Notes under the pieces: model-generated | The model's input: only the letters and a program-made list of their open reading frames with translations | What the model was told of the DNA's origin: nothing | The model's database searches: none | Made by a program: the position numbers and the translations under genes | NCBI RefSeq assembly: GCF_018977255.1 | Contig: NW_024704760.1 | Span: forward strand, 5,890,001-5,954,000 | DNA: 64,000 nt | DNA from: Callorhinchus milii | Lineage: Eukaryota | Reading direction: 5' to 3' | Shown: piece by piece, positions 3,448 to 45,348 of the stretch | Position numbering within the stretch: the stretch's first letter is position 1 | How the letters are laid out: every line of letters begins with the position of its first letter

Positions 3448-6400
3448 CTATGCCGGGGAGACTTGACTCGTTGATACGGAAGAAACCTCTGTCTTGCTTT
3501 GAGATGTTACTGATGAAGAATCATCATCTCCAAACGGATTCTTGCCGCAGCACACTGTGGTGATCATACTGCTACGGAACTGAAAGCAAAGTTTCCACAA
3601 GGCAATTCAGATAGATATTCTTGTGCATCAAAACAACTCTTTTTAAGTGAATTTAAAGCTGAACCATTCACAATTTCAAAACATTATATTTGGGTGGGTC
3701 TGAAGAGTATTTCTCCCGGACCACAAGCCTTGGATCTTATATTGGTGTAAAAAATGGTATCCCACAGGAATTTCTGTTCCAATTTTGGGAAAATAAAAAA
3801 GTGATTTGTATACAAGCGTGAGAAAGAATGTTTTCACGCAATTTCTACACAAATATGCAGCAAAATAAAAAAAATTCTCAAATCTCAAATGTAAAAAGAA
3901 ATTTGGAGGCACTTGAATTGTATTTGTTGCTATTATCTGCACATTTATACGTGTAAAATGTCTGCAAACATGTTGTGCATTCTTGAATCATGATTGCAGA
4001 AACTGAATCACTAGATGTACGTGTATGTCTGTGCACTGCGGCTAAGCTAAAAGCATTTCAAGCACTATCCTTATTGAAACCAGTTCAACACGTTTTTAAT
4101 ATACAGAGGGGAAAAGAGAAATTTGCATTTAATATTTCACTGATTGGTATATTCAACGAGTCATTCTGTAGACTACATTAAATTAGGTATACGGATTTCA
4201 AGCATAATAACCAAACACCCTGCTGGGAAGTGATGATTATTTCGCATAACTATTAATAAATAGTTAATGTTAATTAATGTCAACTATTAATGTTAATTAA
4301 TGAAGAACCTTCCCATCTCATAACAACCACTTTCAAAACCGTGAGAATTTTACATTTGATCTGTTGAAATAAAATATGCAATGGATTATTAACACATTTA
4401 CTTATCATTAATAATAGTCCTTGCATTTGATATAGCACCTTATCACACCATTCAGGTTTCTCAAAGCACTTCCCGGGATATACTGTAAAGTACATTGACT
4501 ATATTTTGTGGGTGAAACGCGGCAGCCAATTGCACACAGCAGTGTCCCACAAACAATTATGGATTGAGTGATCAAATATAGCTTAAAAGAGTTGCAGAAA
4601 GTCAGCAGTGTGTAAAAAAAAGACTAATAACAAACATATTCTTTGACACTGTAAGCTTACAAACGTCAGCAGTGGAATACTGAGGGGAGATTTCCAGTAA
4701 AAAAAAATTGCAAAAAACTTTGTCTTCCCAGGTTTTAGTTTGTTAACTTTGTGATATTTTGTATTATTATTAATATTTTGTATTTGTATTATTGACTTTA
4801 CATTTTGTGGGCAGAATTTGTGAGGTTTAAGGTCTTTCTCTCCAATGAAATAATTAAGGTATTCCATTCTTACCTGCTTGTTCATTAGTATGTAGATGAT
4901 TGGATTGTACAACACAGAACTTTTAGAGAAGAATGAGGGGATAGTCATGAGTAGAGGTGAAATCCATGCCCCTTGATGAGTGAAGATCCAGATTGACAAA
5001 CTGGCATAGGGTAGCCAAGCGGTCAAAAATCCAATGACCATTAGAATGACCATGCGGGTGACTTCTTTCTCTGCCTTCTGGGTGGTTGCAGACTCTTGCT
5101 GCTGCGCTGCGGCCTGAACGAAACAAGTTCCCATGTTATTGCATCTAAACAAAAATGCTCTTAAAATACACCAGCTCATCGAATACATGTTTAAAACTGA
5201 ATAATTGAGTGCATTGTCATAATAATAATAATAATATTATACATTGAATGATGAGGAGGAACAATGCCTATTCAGGCCATATAGTTATTGCACAATAATT
5301 GATTAATACCTATTATTAAGGTTTTCAAGGTTTTGATGAACGCACCATGATTGCACGCTATTTGAAATGGCATGGCTGTCTACCAAAAAATTATGATCTT
5401 ATTTGTTGAAAACTTTGGTGTTTTGTTTCCCCCTCAGCTTTCCTTTAAAGCTTTCATCCAGTCTCTGATCAAGCTCCTCCGAATCTCTTCCACTTGGTTC
5501 TCTCCCTCTATGCTTTCAAAACCCATCTTGTAAAAAAAAATGTTCTCTTTGACTAAGTAAATAAGTGAAAATCATTGCCATGCAAAATAAATAATAACTC
5601 CTGCTTGCAGCCACAGAATCTGCAGGACATGTTAACGGCTTGAGAAATGCGACTTACCTCCTTAACTTTACAGATTAAACGTCCATATGAGAAGAATATG
5701 AGTGTAACTGGAAATGCAAAATGCACGCTAAACAAGTACATAAGGTAAGAGTCATTGTTGTACAGTGGATTCGTGGTGTAGAAATCTGGAGTACATGAAC
5801 ACTGGAATCCTTCTGGGATGAACCTAAAGAGAAAAACAGCTTCTTAAAATATAAAGCGTATCTATTTTGCAGCACAAAATGATCACTTCTAGAAGAGGGT
5901 TACCTCTCATCATCATCATAATCCTTTTATATCACATTGTCTCAAATGAAAGGATTTTGCTGTGAAGTGTAGTAACTGTGTATTTGTAGGGGAACACAGC
6001 AATTTCCAACAAACAGCTACAAAGTGCGTGACTAATTTTATTTGAAGAATCGTTTTCTCAGACTCGGGGAGAACCCACCTTATGTTTTCACAACAGTGTC
6101 AGTCGGATATTTAACATCCACGTGAACAGGCAGGGGAACTCGCTTTAATGTCTCATCCAAAAAGGATGGGATTTCCAACAATTCAGCAACCGTCTGATTT
6201 AGAATGCTTCCAACTGAGCCAGGTTGACACCTAAAGAATTAGCGTGTGATTTGACCACAACCCTCTGGCATAAAGCTAGGCACGTTCACAGTATAAGGTG
6301 CCATTGAGAGAGTCAATAGTCCTTTTTGTGTTGCATATTATTTTATTTGTTTTTGTATCTTGTTTTTCAATTCCTCCACACCAAGTCATCTATTACCAAG

Positions 6401-7882
6401 TTTTCCAATTTGTAGCAATGTGTTCTGTGGCTGGGTGCTCTGAGATAAATGTGCCTTTATTGAAACCTTACTTGAATGTGTGTCTTTTTATAAAGCCTTG
6501 CCCGAAATACTTTGCGGGTTCTTTTATTTGCGGGAGAGTTATTTAAGAAACAAAGTTCAGTTGATACATATATATATACTCTCAATTTTGATTGAGAGCC
6601 ACGACACGCGAGAAGGTAAGGAAGGCAGTACTTCCACACTATTGAGGGGAACCAATTTTGACGTAAAGATCTGCTAATAATAATAATAATCTGTGCGTTT
6701 GATATAGAGCCTTATCACATCGTCGAGACTGTTCAAAGCGCTTCACGGAGTACGTGGTAAAGTGGATCGACTGTACACTTTGTGGGCGAAACACGGCAGC
6801 CAATTGTGCACACCAGCGCCTTATTTTGTATATCCTATTTCATATTTCACAGCTCGAGTGAAATACTTGCCTCGATGGGGATTTGGGTTTTTTGTTTTCT
6901 CACCTGGACCAGCCAACGAGTGGGGGCACTGCAGCCGTTAGAGCCATGAACCACGTGAAGCCCATTCCCATTAGAGCATGAGACGTCCCAAACCTGAAGT
7001 TGCCCATTGGCTTGCATATCACTATGTACCTTTCTATGGCCAAAACCACCAGAGACCAGAGGGCTACCTGGCCTGTAGAGAGACATCAATAACATAAGAG
7101 AGAGGCAAACAGGGAGAAGGGCAAAAAACAATAAAGGAAAACGTTAAGACAGATAACTGTGGAGATCCATTGGTCTTTTATCGGAATAACGTTCTCTCTA
7201 CCGTAATACTTCGCACCAGTTTGAGCTGGCAATCAAAACGTGATACAACAACATTTTTCGATATTTAACAACGCCCAATCTAAACTGGAGTAAATTATTT
7301 AGTTTGTGTTTGGAATATGCAGTCATACATTTCACTGCTCTTTCTTGGCAGTGGAGGGAACCTCAGCTTTTCACAGATGATAATAATCTTTGCATTTGAT
7401 ATACATAGCGCCTGATAAAAGTTCTCAAAGCGCTTCACAAAATACACCGCAAAGCCAATCGACTGCATATTTTGCGGATATATTTCAGACGTGCGCTACG
7501 CATTTTTTTTTTTGCACCTACCTCCCAGCGTTGCGAAGAAACCTTCAAAAATACAGCCGATTGGCCCGAAGATGAAATAACCGTTCATGGTCGTGTAGAA
7601 GCTTAACACGAATCCGAACATGATCATGACCAGGTTGGCAACAGCCAGGTTGACTAGAATGTAATTTAGAGGCTGCCTGAGCTTCTTGTGTTTGACTGTC
7701 ACCAGCAGTGTCAAGCCATTGATTGGTAGCCCAGCACATATGAGAAGGAACATGTAAGCCGAAATCGAGGAGAACAGCCATCGGTCAGCCAAGTAATACT
7801 GCGGGTATTCAAAAGGATTGCGAACTACACCAGTCCTGTTGGACATAGGGATGTAAAAATTACTCCCTTCTGTGCCGTTCAT
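3448..7882 (-). CDS. RH2: RH2 (rhodopsin-like, green/blue-sensitive) cone opsin, 355 aa; coding exons 7882-7522, 7072-6904, 5823-5658, 5113-4874, 3579-3448
   Basis: Starts [32 protein letters not shown]. Has E113, ERY, K296, NPIIY and the C-terminus [12 protein letters not shown]...VSPA*. Exon lengths 361/169/166/240/132 match the RH1/RH2 structure, with GT-AG junctions in phase. Q122, P189 and A264 indicate RH2 rather than RH1. Confidence 0.96.
4408..4575 (-). mobile_element. SINE 3' half in RH2 intron 4. Similar fragments at ~1200-1325, 6676-6822, 7379-7480, 8325-8478, 11062-11186, 13625-13740, 14066-14235, 21525-21745, 34196-34372, 37085-37195, 37504-37680, 41101-41295, 44512-44650, 45910-46027, 46985-47115, 57520-57680
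   Basis: Recurrent TGTGAAGCGCTTTGAGACGTCTC...ATAAGGCGCTATATCAAATGCAAGGA(TTA)n block on either strand; boundaries approximate. Confidence 0.85.
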
Positions 7883-8003
7883 ATTTAACAAAAAAAAATC
7901 ACGAGCACTGAGGAAAATATAACTTGAGGGTGGTAAACGTTCCAACTATTCTAGAAGACGACTGGAAGGTTTCTCAGCATAAAGCGCAATTTATTGACTT
8001 CTT

Positions 8004-15904: not shown

Positions 15905-15999
15905 TCAAAATAAACACTCATCTGCTATATAAAAGCCAAGCAAGTTAGTTAGCTCAATCAGAAAGCTCTATTCAACAGAACTGACTCAACCTCAAAACA
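15905..15999 (+). promoter_or_regulatory. MLN: Motilin promoter and short non-coding exon 1
   Basis: FOXA-like AATAAACA at ~15909, TATATAAAA at 15926-15934 and a GTAAGT donor at 16000. Mammalian MLN also has a non-coding first exon. Confidence 0.6.
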
Positions 16000-16276
16000 G
16001 TAAGTGCTACATTTCAATATCTATATGTTAAGGATGTGTGAGTGTACATTTGCACACGGTTAGATTTAGTCAAGTAAACAACATACCAATTTTAATTGCA
16101 AATTACTTATTCATTGTTTGTGCCTGTAAATGTCAGTTGCAATTTGTGAACTATTTATTTTTGATAGCAATTTGTAAGAGATCGTCTTGGGACAAGGTGA
16201 CCAAAGAATGTGAATGGGAAAGATGTTGAATGTAGATGAAGTTAAATGTAAATTCCTTTTTTAACAATTGCCAATA

Positions 16277-17187: not shown

Positions 17188-19256
17188 ATGGTTTCCAAGC
17201 GAGTAATCATAAGCCTCCTGGTGGTGTGTGCTGTGGCTATGCTGGCAGAGAGGACTGAGGGGTTCCTGAGTTTCCTCAGCCCATTTGATCTTCAAAAGAT
17301 AATTGTATGAAAACATTTTCAACAACAACAACAATTTACATTTATATAGCGCCTTTCATGTCGGGAGTTCGTCCCAAGACGCTGGGCAATCAGGGATTTT
17401 TACCCGAGCAGGGGTTGGGATCAGGGGTGGAGGGCAGGGAGGGCGGGGGTAAGAGAGTGACCGAAGGCACAGTTGAAGAGGAAGGTCTCAAGACGTACCT
17501 TGAAGGAAGCAAGGGAGGGAGCAAGGCAAAGAAACTGTGAGATGGAGTTCCAAAGGGCGGAAAACAGTTTAAACACTTGCCCCAAATTTCACCTAGTCTT
17601 GGAGTGGAAGATCAATTTGTCTTGAAATGCACAATTTCCTTGAAATTGTGAAGAAAAATCTTTTAAAAATCCAGTCTTAAAATAGATGCTAGTTTTCTAC
17701 AATTCCCTTAAAAGAACAATTTCCCAAATTAAGGCTGAGATGACCAATTATTCACAAACCTGCTCAATCTTCAATTTAAGACCAAAAAGTCCTGCAGGCT
17801 CAGGTTGGGCAGAATTTCAGGTCTACTTAAGCTGTAACAAATGTTATTTTAGGCCAGTTCTTGCTTGTAATCTATAGCATCTGGAGAAGTGGTGGTTAAA
17901 CGATATTATTCAAACAGGTGCATTACTGTAACAAAGTGGAATTTAATTTTGCAGAGGTTGTATTCAATGTGTCAAAGATGCTACTTGCTATATTGTTTAT
18001 TACTTACTACTATTCTTTCATTGAAAGGCCAAAAACAGAATAAGAATGGAGAAAAATATGGCAGAAAACCTGCAACGGAGATCTGAAGAAAATGGTTCCC
18101 CAGAAGGATTGGGTAGAGATGAGACCGCAGAAGAGATAGTAAGGGTATTTAATAAGACCAATATGGAGTTCTGTAGCTTAGTGGTTAGAGCTCTCGCCTC
18201 GCAAGCGTCCTCGCAGGAGGACTTGGGTTTGATTCCCGGGCAGAGCAAAATGTTGGGCAAGTTTCCTTACTTTACTGACCTAACAGTAAGTAGGTTGTTA
18301 GTCGATTGGAGAATTGTTTTTCCGGGGGCTAATAAACCCTTCAAAAAAATTATAATACTTTTGTCATTCAATCCACAATTTTTTGTGGGACACTGTGGCA
18401 CTGTGGCGCTGTGCGCAATTGCCTGCCACATTTCACCCACAAAATACACTTTACAGTATATTCTGTGAAGTGCTTTGAGACAGCTGAAAGACTTATCAAA
18501 TGCAAGGATTATTATTATTATGATAATGGCATGTACCTGCTTAAAATGCCTGTACATAGATCTATAACAGCAACGACATCATTACAAAATATACTAACTG
18601 CAGTATAAATAAACAGGCAAGTCGATTCCATTTGGTAATATTGAAAATGATTACATTTGTCATACAGCCTTAGAGATGGACTGCTATAATAAGGATAAAT
18701 AGAAATCGGTTGATCAAATAAAACAGAATACAGTTTCACTATTATTTGTTCACACACTGATTTTATTTCTTGACGAATTGTGCTCAGGTCTGTGTTCCTT
18801 TGGAAGTTGGAGTCAAAATGAACGCGAAACAGTTATTGAAATATGAAAATCTTGTGGGTGAAATTTTGTCAGAAGGCACCAATGGTAAGACAGGTTTCAT
18901 TTCATTTTTAGGAATCTGATCTTAATGTCAAAAGATTGATAGAAAAAAACGTTACATTTCCATGCTACTGTGTACAGATTAATACCAATTTGGGGATACA
19001 AAATATTACAAGACAAACATTCTTTTTTTATGGGTGGAAAACAAAATTAATAAATAGATTCTACCTCTTCTGAAGACTCAGTTGATAAATCTCGGATTCT
19101 GCTGACTGAGTTGGCTGACCTCAATCAGGTAAGCAGTAACGATGACATAATAGGTCACAATGCCAAATTATCAAAGGTATTCATAACCATAATAAAATGT
19201 CAAATTACTGAAAACATTTTTAATCGTTGTGGTTTTTTCAATAAACAGGCCAATGA
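17188..19256 (+). CDS. MLN: Promotilin precursor, ~112 aa; coding exons 17188-17304, 18028-18144 (alternative in-frame donor at 18138), 18788-18884, 19249-19256
   Basis: The signal peptide MVSKRVIISLLVVCAVAMLAERTEG resembles human MVSRKAVAALLVVHVAAMLASQTEA. Mature region FLSFLSPFDLQKII|AKNRIRMEKNMAENLQ-RR; associated peptide VCVPLEVGVKMNAKQLLKY (human LTAPLEIGMRMNSRQLEKY). Phases 0/0/1 are consistent. Lies directly upstream of LEMD2, as human MLN does. Confidence 0.88.
17320..17560 (-). mobile_element. L2-clade LINE 3' fragment in MLN intron 2
   Basis: Same family as 1733-2060; tail AGCGTCTTGGGACG...GAAAGGCGCTATATAAATG(TTG)n. Confidence 0.75.
18164..18520 (+). mobile_element. Full-length tRNA(Ala-like)-headed SINE with L2-type tail, in MLN intron 3
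   Basis: A box TAGCTTAGTGG, B-box-like GGTTTGATTCC, family body, and AAATGCAAGGA(TTA)n tail. Confidence 0.85.
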
Positions 19257-19341
19257 CGTGGAGAAGATCACAGCTGGAAGATCCTTCAATGCTGCAACTG
19301 AAGATTTATGGAACATTATCATTGATTGTCACTTAGTAATT

Positions 19342-19347
19342 AATAAA
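19342..19347 (+). terminator. MLN: MLN polyadenylation signal
   Basis: AATAAA about 85 nt after the TGA, followed by U/GU-rich sequence. Confidence 0.65.
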
Positions 19348-20395: not shown

Positions 20396-28570
<8,175 letters not shown>

Positions 28571-42700: not shown

Positions 42701-45348
42701 GTGTTAAAGATTTGAAAAGTTATTTTTATTCAGTTCCTTGTGCAGAATACTGAAAAGCAAATTAATTAATTTCTGATTTGGAAAAAACGGTCAACAGACT
42801 AGATTAAGTTGATGCTTTGCCAGTAGATTGAAATGATATAAGAGACACACTACACGATGTACACGATGTGGAGTCCTGTAGCTCAGTGGTTAGAGCACTC
42901 GCTTTGCAAGTGAGAGACCTGAGTTCAATTCCAGGCAGAGGGCGAAACCTTGGGCAAGTTTCCTTACTCCACACAGAGCCTAATAATAATCCTCCAAAAC
43001 CCAAAACAATAATTAAATTGGTCATTTTCAATCTACGACTGTTTGTGGGACATTGCTGTGCGCAATTGGCTGCCGCATTCGCCCACAAATATACAGTCAA
43101 TTCACTTTACAGTGTGTTCTGTGAAGCACTTTGGGACGTCCTCCCGACGTGAAAAGCGCTATATCAAATGCAAGGATTATTATTATTATTACAACGTATG
43201 TTATGTCTCATATAAACCAGCCACATATTATTACCTTTGTATGTCTTATATTTCAACAAGCCTGAAGAGAAATGTAATGATTCTACATCATCTGAGCAAG
43301 TCTGCATCGTGCCAAAAAAAGCCCAACATGCTTTCAGCCACTACAACAAGAACAACAACAACTACACCCCCAAACTCTATCCCTCTGTCCCTCCGTCTTG
43401 CTCCTTCAGGTCGAGCCCGAACCTTCCTATTCGACCGTGCCTACCAGTCACCCCCTCCCACCTCCCAGCTCGGAGTCGTGATCTGCCACTGTCCAGCGCT
43501 CTGGGACTCTGCCTTTCATGAAACATTGCAACTTGTTGTTGTTGTCGTTGTTAAATGAACCTATTGGAGTATCAAAATAGAAAATGTTCGCATGTATCTT
43601 GTTCCAAAAAAGAACTCTTGTTTTCCTTAACACTGAAATCAGGATTTCTCTTACTGGAAAATGTCGTGTCGCAGTTCAAATGTCCCAGCATCCTGGATTT
43701 AAAGATGGGCACCAGACAACATGGGGACGATGCCTCAGAGGAGAAGAAAGCCCGACACATACAGAAGTGTGAGCAAAGCACCTCGGCATCACTGGGAGTC
43801 CGCATCTGTGGAATGCAGGTAACTGATCACAGACCTATTTATTTACATCTTTTGCCAATTACAGATAAGAGCGCAAGAAATGCTTAACGAAAAAAGACCA
43901 ACCCAGGTCGCCTTCCACCTTCCTCGCGGTCGCACGCATGTATTGTATTGTCCGGATCTACCCATGTACTGTTTCCCATAATGTTATTTCCTAAAAGAAA
44001 ACTATCTAATCTGTGTTTGAAGGAATCAACATTTCTTGCTTCAGGCGTCTCCCTAGGGAGCCTTTTCCACAGGTCCAGTTGATGGATATTTTTTTTCGGT
44101 AATGTGGTGCTCACTCACTTCTGCGCTAAAGTGTCACCGTATGTTAGCAACTCAATTGCCAAAGTAGGGCTTCAACCCGCGGCTTTCTGACATGGAGACG
44201 AGAGTGCTACCAACTGAAAGGGGCTGAAATGTTGCATGTATTGCATCCGTGTAACGTGACAGCATGGTAATGGGTCATTCGGCCCAACTGGTCCGTGCTG
44301 GTGTTGTGTTTATTCTTCACGCGAGTCCCCACCCCTCTTATTCCCATCTCCTCTATTCCCTTCTCCTTCATGAATGCACTAAATGTCCTTTTATTTATGC
44401 GGATGGTTTCTGCTTCAACCCATATTGATTGATAACTATGCATAACTGTGTGCATTTGTTAACACTGAACAGTTAATGACAAACAGCAATGTGCCTACAA
44501 TAGCACTTTGGAATAATAATAATAATAATCCTTGCCTTGATATAGTGCTTTATCATGTCTTCAAGGCGTCTCAAAGCGCTTCACAGAATATACTGTAAAG
44601 TGAATTGACTGTATATTTTATGAGCGAAAAGTGGCAGCCAGTTGCCCACTGTTTTTATGCCACTGTCTGTTTATATTGGCTTTATAAATGTAGCCCAGAA
44701 GCACATTATGCAGCATTATTTGGATCCAGCTGTAGATAAAATTACAACCATCATATTTATTGCGCTGCATATATCTCTAGAGTGGAAAAACTTTACGTTT
44801 AAAAAATTAAAGGATCAATTTTATAATTTACTTTATTTCAGATTTACCAGCCTGAGAGCGGTCACTTCCTGTGTCGGAACAAGTATTATGGACGATCTCT
44901 TTCGACTGAAGGTTTCAAACAGTCCCTTTACCAGTTTCTACACAACGGCACGTACCTCAGGAAGGACTTGATCGAGCCTGTTCTACTTCGACTCAAAGCT
45001 CTCAAGGCAGTGATAGAGAAGCAGAGCTCCTATAGATTCTACTCCAGTTCACTTCTTATCATTTATGACGGAAAAGAGATGAAAGCAGAACAGAAAAGGA
45101 ACAGTGCGGAGATCCAAATGCACAAACTTTCGTGCAATAACTGTAACTGTAATCTCTTTTCCGACGTCTCCCCACAGCCTGGAAATGGTTCAGCCAAGAT
45201 TGAGGTTCATATGATAGATTTCGCTCACACGACATACAAGGATTTCCAGTCTTACCAGGGCACTCACGACGGACCCGATAAAGGTTATATCTTTGGCCTG
45301 GATAATCTAATTCAAATTCTTCAGACGTTAAGGGATGAAACCGAATAA
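36748..45348 (+). CDS. IP6K3: Inositol hexakisphosphate kinase 3, ~421 aa; coding exons 36748-36943, 40712-40931, 41680-41846 (in-frame alternative acceptors 41662/41665), 43643-43818, 44842-45348
   Basis: Contains [26 protein letters not shown], the PxxxDxKxG motif ([25 protein letters not shown]), [10 protein letters not shown] and MIDFAH. Splice phases are consistent. The position downstream of LEMD2 matches IP6K3 synteny. Confidence 0.92.
39655..39828 (-). mobile_element. SINE 5' half (tRNA head)
   Basis: Reverse complement of GGAGTCCTGTAGC...CTCGCCTCGCAAGCGAG...GGCAAGTTTCCTTACTC. Confidence 0.75.
42869..43190 (+). mobile_element. Young full-length tRNA-headed SINE inside the IP6K3 U12 intron
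   Basis: Near-identical to 19853-20181, including the shortened middle region and the GGGACGTCCTCCCGACGTGAAAAG tail. Confidence 0.9.
43362..43552 (+). mobile_element. L2 LINE 3' fragment
   Basis: [12 protein letters not shown]...TFLFDRAY followed by a (GTT)n tail. Confidence 0.65.
43870..44085 (-). mobile_element. CR1-like LINE 3' fragment
   Basis: The minus-strand translation [25 protein letters not shown] resembles a CR1 ORF2 end. Confidence 0.6.
44255..44420 (-). mobile_element. Degenerate CR1-type 3' end, also present at ~538-650
   Basis: Contains CATTCGGCCC (reverse complement of the CR1 tail GGGCCGAATG) and shares CACCCCTCTT-A-TTCCC-TCTCC with 595-620. Confidence 0.5.

Follow-up and report, generated by a model that had tools for sequence, protein, structure and literature searches.

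The motilin gene and its surroundings

The window analysed here, a 64,000-nucleotide stretch of the Callorhinchus milii genome, carries on its plus strand a motilin gene with four coding exons (17188-17304, 18028-18144, 18788-18884 and 19249-19256), the junctions of which are read from splice signals, conservation and the public record of the protein. The joined reading frame runs through 112 codons, for 112 amino acids, without an internal stop, and all three coding introns are bounded by GT and AG. In this frame the precursor reads as the initial annotation had it: a signal peptide of 25 residues leads into FLSFLSP, and the first dibasic pair, RR, comes 30 residues after the signal. The features of the locus are as follows:

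15926..15999, plus strand: TATA-like box (15926) and probable non-coding first exon, with a putative start and a GTAAGT donor at 16000
17188..17262, plus strand: signal peptide, 25 amino acids; ATG at 17188, exon acceptor just before 17180, T-E-G preceding Phe1
17263..17304, plus strand: residues 1-14 of mature motilin, starting FLSFLSP; GT donor at the end
17305..18027, plus strand: phase 0 intron within the mature peptide, 723 bp, GT-AG
18028..18144, plus strand: exon for residues 15-30 (18028-18075), then RR, then the start of the propeptide
18052-18057, plus strand: KN, residues 23-24, aligned with the KK site of motilins
18076-18081, plus strand: RR, residues 31-32, aligned with the cleavage site of ghrelins
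18788..18884, plus strand: exon for the motilin/ghrelin-associated peptide (Pfam PF04643)
19249..19347, plus strand: last exon, with the final codons, the stop (19254-19256) and AATAAA at 19342
20568..21394, plus strand: first exon of a LEM-domain membrane protein (LEMD2-type), downstream of motilin; Pfam LEM E 4.9e-14
43555..45345, plus strand: inositol polyphosphate kinase (IPK) exons (IP6K3-type); Pfam IPK E 4.5e-25 and 7.2e-37

The top database matches of the window protein are C. milii promotilin records, and one of them, NCBI XP_007892418.1 (P0003), is an exact suffix of it. At the exon 3/4 junction (18788-18793) two residues distinguish the public isoforms P0003 and P0200, which suggests alternative splicing at sites separated by a few bases. 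Residue 1 is aromatic (Phe1), as in motilins, and the signal peptide, the intron-split mature peptide and the motilin-associated peptide follow the motilin precursor layout (PMC6533539, in excerpt). PF04643 scores 20.8 bits (E 3.5e-4; cut-off 22) against the exon at 18788-18884 alone and 24.5 bits against the whole of P0003; PF04644 finds no match in the mature-peptide exon of the window, and a PDB sequence search with a shark motilin profile returned no hormone.

Phylogeny and neighbourhood agree with these records in naming the gene motilin, as the initial annotation did. In a tree built from 32 precursors, 19 of motilin and 13 of ghrelin, with GRLN-LP left out, motilins and ghrelins separate at 100/100 and the window protein groups with the motilins; this split persists at 100/100 after mature residues 1-7 are removed. 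Mobula protein P0009, called “ghrelin-like” by NCBI, groups with the motilins too and carries their heptapeptide; its name is likely wrong. Furthermore, LEM and IPK genes both lie downstream of motilin on the same strand, found in a Pfam scan of 150 of the 269 stop-free segments of the window. We take them to be LEMD2 and, by synteny, IP6K3, in agreement with what we take to be the human order, MLN-LEMD2-IP6K3. Rhodopsin-family opsin exons (4586-7945, minus strand; Rhodopsin_N E 5e-24), presumably of RH2 by synteny, lie about 9 kb upstream. SEC13, CAND-type, CCDC174 and IRAK2-type genes, names that except for CCDC174 we assign from motifs, are found together on another contig (G000:C12:18100001-18400000; L015-L034, L046-L055), and the window is on C19; it thus lies outside the SEC13/TATDN2/IRAK2/CCDC174 block that marks the ghrelin locus of bony vertebrates (PMC4797157, in excerpt). 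The gene is the already annotated C. milii motilin, the main idea about it is in print and its novelty is low: what remains new is a small processing variant and a modest question of pharmacology.

A heptapeptide common to chondrichthyan motilins

Why does this motilin begin like a ghrelin? All 120 bony-vertebrate ghrelins examined start with GSSFLSP, so that their residues 3-7 are those of C. milii motilin, as had been noticed initially; this set (109 of the 120 matches listed among 436, plus 11 from a second profile search) was chosen by a ghrelin profile and is biased towards the SFLSP motif. Shark and ray ghrelin-like peptides start with GVSFHP instead. Because the background probability of a given pentamer at a fixed position is ~1.4e-6, the match is not a product of chance; it reflects the paralogy of motilin and ghrelin.

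The idea that SFLSP is unusual did not survive comparison. All 11 chondrichthyan species compared, sharks, rays and chimaera alike (Heptranchias, Heterodontus, Pristiophorus, two Scyliorhinus, Stegostoma, Rhincodon, Mustelus, Mobula, Hemitrygon and C. milii), have exactly FLSFLSP, which is the normal start of their motilins; these promotilins also share the precursor layout and are 49-59% identical to P0003. The initial annotation saw a contrast because it set the peptide against human motilin, and the human form is the derived one.

A profile search gave 56 representatives: 11 ghrelins, 7 sequences without a usable N-terminus and 38 of motilin type. Scored against SFLSP, one of these 38 (the chondrichthyan) reaches 5/5, three (bowfin, reedfish and sturgeon) reach 4/5, four, lungfish included, 3/5, and 13, which are tetrapod sequences, 0/5. 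Coelacanth motilin starts with FISFFSP and teleost motilins with H-x-x-F-F-S-P, Ser6-Pro7 being present throughout (Table 1 of PMC8419268, in excerpt). Ser3, Phe4, Ser/Thr6 and Pro7 are common to the motilins of chondrichthyans, lungfish, coelacanth, reedfish, sturgeon and bowfin. Since the heptapeptide is identical in all 11 chondrichthyans and close in these bony fishes, it most likely represents retained ancestry, and the proposed resemblance of the core to the ancestral motilin/ghrelin ligand is, on this conservation, the most likely reading.

Predicted length of the mature peptide

The signal peptide is probably cut before Phe1, and T-E-G-F is invariant across chondrichthyan motilin precursors. 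Where the other end of the hormone lies is harder to predict. KK occupies residues 23-24 in five of five aligned bony-vertebrate motilins; at the same position the 11 chondrichthyan motilins have KK (six), RK (one), KN (three: C. milii, Stegostoma and Rhincodon) or NE (one). As the KK site after residue 22 is missing not only from C. milii but also from Stegostoma, Rhincodon and Mustelus, it is typical of chondrichthyans without defining them. In C. milii its loss to KN makes RR the next site, hence the predicted length of 30 residues. The “unusually long” mature peptide of the initial annotation therefore stands as a plausible prediction; as a peculiarity of C. milii it does not, because whale and zebra sharks have lost KK too.

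What does set C. milii apart is that it alone of the 11 species has no dibasic pair before residue 31: nine of the ten others have one at 12-13. It also has Glu as residue 22, in place of the Gly that would serve as amide donor. A dibasic pair at 31-32 is present in all three KN species and in two of the other eight (Fisher p 0.06, for about two independent origins), which points weakly to a link between the two changes. The RR of C. milii aligns with the RR/PR cleavage site of ghrelins, and with KK lost this makes the 30-mer, near the 28 residues of ghrelin, the most canonical of the predicted products.

Counting to the first dibasic pair would leave only 10-11 residues for nine of the 11 chondrichthyan motilins. 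Cleavage at a single Lys is uncommon; in C. milii motilin, Lys23 is preceded by Arg20, Arg18 and Lys16. Dibasic rules are unreliable, since ghrelins have internal dibasic pairs elsewhere in the sequence and the human hormone is cleaved at one lone Arg (PMC3863518, in excerpt). From the sequence, convertase cleavage at RR seems somewhat favoured over cleavage at Lys23. Because the activity of mammalian motilin sits in residues 1-7 (PMC8419268, in excerpt), lengthening at the C-terminus would be likelier to change stability than selectivity.

Ligands, receptors and the role of the peptide

If residues 3-7 are those of ghrelin, could the peptide be acylated like ghrelin? GOAT depends crucially on Gly1, Ser3 and Phe4 (PMC3863518, in excerpt), and C. 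milii motilin has Phe in place of Gly1. The genome offers a better substrate, and an enzyme:

G000:C56:317230-316116 (L083:7230-6116), minus strand: chimaera ghrelin-like gene, peptide starting GVSFHP
G000:C1 near 74229000-74230100 (L057:2396-1366), minus strand: large exon of GOAT/MBOAT4, split over two frames in the assembly

In the C56 gene, GT-AG introns separate three coding exons, all open, which encode a 25-residue signal, GVSFHP and an RR after 22 residues; an IRAK-type kinase exon, probably IRAK1, lies about 10 kb away on the opposite strand (G000:C56:306580). GVSFHP, which C. milii motilin does not carry, begins the octanoylated ghrelin-like peptides of shark and stingray (GRLN-LP; PMC2803784, in excerpt), which are members of motilin's family and share its Ser3-Phe4 but come from a separate gene, the chimaera counterpart of which is that on C56. 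As this gene supplies a Gly1-Ser3-Phe4 peptide, GOAT has a proper substrate. C. milii motilin is thus very probably not acylated if GOAT needs Gly1: the caveat of the initial annotation, that this need argues against octanoylation, holds, and its suggestion that Ser3 may be modified becomes unlikely.

The C56 gene came from a scan for a signal followed by G-x-S/T-F. PF04643, PF04644, coelacanth ghrelin and a GVSFHP-based pattern had found no ghrelin-type ligand over the genome; the pattern missed the gene by fixing the next codon, and the Pfam and ghrelin profiles missed it as well. The notion of a genome without any ghrelin-type ligand is overturned by this gene beside an IRAK-type exon. The PF04644 genome search gave sub-threshold matches only, one of which, an exact ghrelin-like octapeptide on C3, is a chance match with no signal peptide and a stop after 16 codons. 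For GOAT, inactivation by frameshift was considered and rejected: in the published elephant-shark sequence (BK009985) the GOAT frame stays open at that site (PMC5298278 supplement), and the frameshift is probably an assembly error or indel. An Atlas search with the GOAT exon added “MBOAT” only.

Bony vertebrates keep ghrelin downstream of SEC13. In C. milii, ghrelin profiles found no orthologue in the 300 kb around SEC13, the interval downstream included, and a slightly stricter signal-plus-G-x-S/T-F scan there gave three candidates, none credible. Since the same profiles also missed the C56 gene, their silence is weak evidence; it fits the description of the elasmobranch ghrelin-like peptide as a paralogue of ghrelin (Hara 2018, cited in PMC6533539, in excerpt). 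TATDN2 was not located, downstream of SEC13 included; TatD-family exons on two small contigs (G000:C414 and C459; L039, L042) are clearly unlike the chromosomal copies on C2 and C3 and may be extra paralogues or foreign DNA.

Which receptors await these ligands? Judged by the first coding exon of each gene, which is open in all three, there is one MLNR-like gene on C4 (best match MLNR) and there are two GHSR-like genes, on C11 and C105 (best match GHSR). G000:C105:52088-53059 (L067:1213-2184) is an interval on the contig with a GHSR-type first exon. With these, the positions of two ligands, three receptors and GOAT are known within a single chondrichthyan genome.

The closest pharmacological precedent is coelacanth motilin, which shares Phe1, Ser3, Phe4, Ser6, Pro7 and the lack of Gly1 with the C. 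milii peptide and differs in Phe5, a length of 22 residues and assayed GHSR agonism, the C. milii peptide being known from sequence. The synthetic coelacanth peptide binds coelacanth GHSR (IC50 9.55 nM; tracer Kd 0.58 nM), resembles ghrelin in EC50 and Emax as an activator of it and needs no acyl group for this; at human GHSR it is only a weak agonist, and for the motilins of human and zebrafish, binding to the GHSRs tested was either absent or not quantifiable (bioRxiv 10.1101/2023.06.03.543543). Cross-activation is therefore not general among motilins. The same preprint, in whose text “Callorhinchus” does not occur, aligned four shark motilins, none of which was assayed, and proposed that the dual role may persist in Chondrichthyes. 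No chondrichthyan motilin assay or peptidomics was found in the literature searched, although Hara et al. (2018) may cover such sequences; the available parts of PMC12714231, PMC5126056 and PMC10213974 hold nothing bearing on the question. By analogy with the coelacanth, C. milii motilin has a slightly better than even chance of activating a GHSR. The cross-activation first suggested for this peptide is plausible, then, but no surprise: it was shown for the coelacanth in 2023 and predicted for Chondrichthyes.

From how the gene is built, its orthology, its conservation and the genes present in the genome, we infer processing and pharmacology as follows, giving the whole a probability of roughly 0.6: C. 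milii motilin would be an unacylated gut peptide, probably of 30 residues, with an inherited N-terminus, a predicted agonist of MLNR and likely of GHSR. It would be released in the intestine, cut at RR and activate MLNR and also a GHSR, with Phe1, Phe4 and Leu5 plausibly providing the hydrophobic contacts made in ghrelin by the acyl chain; the acylated ghrelin-like peptide would be the dedicated GHSR ligand, and the motilin N-terminus would probably descend from an ancestor shared by motilin and ghrelin. The species thus makes a clean test case for a question left open in 2023, whether dual MLNR/GHSR agonism by unacylated motilin is ancestral in gnathostomes; a natural acyl-free peptide with ghrelin residues 3-7 would further reveal how GHSR can be switched on without octanoylation.

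The most serious competitor, tentative as it is, takes the peptide for an ordinary MLNR-selective motilin that has kept its heptapeptide for MLNR only and is cut at Lys23 to 22 residues or shorter. The basic residues at 16, 18, 20 and 23 would allow this, KK or RK at 23-24 in seven of the 11 chondrichthyans and the invariant KK of the aligned bony-vertebrate motilins speak for a cut there, in humans motilin and ghrelin show no cross-reaction, and a separate gene exists for an acylatable GHSR ligand. However, coelacanth motilin activates its GHSR with a less ghrelin-like start, cleavage at a single Lys is the rarer event, and the absence of any earlier dibasic pair is peculiar to C. milii.

An extension of the dual-agonist reading is doubtful: cartilaginous fishes would have lost true ghrelin and kept SFLSP in motilin to serve MLNR and GHSR, the chimaera 30-mer, cut at ghrelin's site, would be an acyl-independent hunger signal, and the acylated ghrelin-like peptide would serve the second GHSR.

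It is improbable that SFLSP converged on ghrelin in stem chondrichthyans, possibly once the ghrelin orthologue had been lost. This reading draws on position 5, which is Leu in chondrichthyan motilins and in ghrelins and Phe or Ile in the motilins of the four early-branching bony fishes and the coelacanth, and on the paralogue status of the elasmobranch ghrelin-like peptide. Yet the sharing of Ser3, Phe4, Ser/Thr6 and Pro7 with bony-fish motilins confines it to one position at most, and at that position the state equals that of the paralogue; retention of Leu5 is the simpler reading, though not proven. C. milii motilin resembles bony-vertebrate GHRL in residues 3-7, in the aligned RR and in predicted length, and differs in lacking Gly1, in its side of the tree and in its LEM/IPK rather than SEC13 locus.

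Least likely of all is a motilin acylated on Ser3 by GOAT and acting as the ghrelin of stomachless C. milii: Ser3 and Phe4, a GOAT gene and the lack of a ghrelin match beside SEC13 would suit it, but residue 1 is Phe rather than Gly, the C56 gene with its open exons accounts for GOAT retention, and coelacanth motilin is active without an acyl group. Wrasse have lost ghrelin and GOAT together (PMC5840709, in excerpt).
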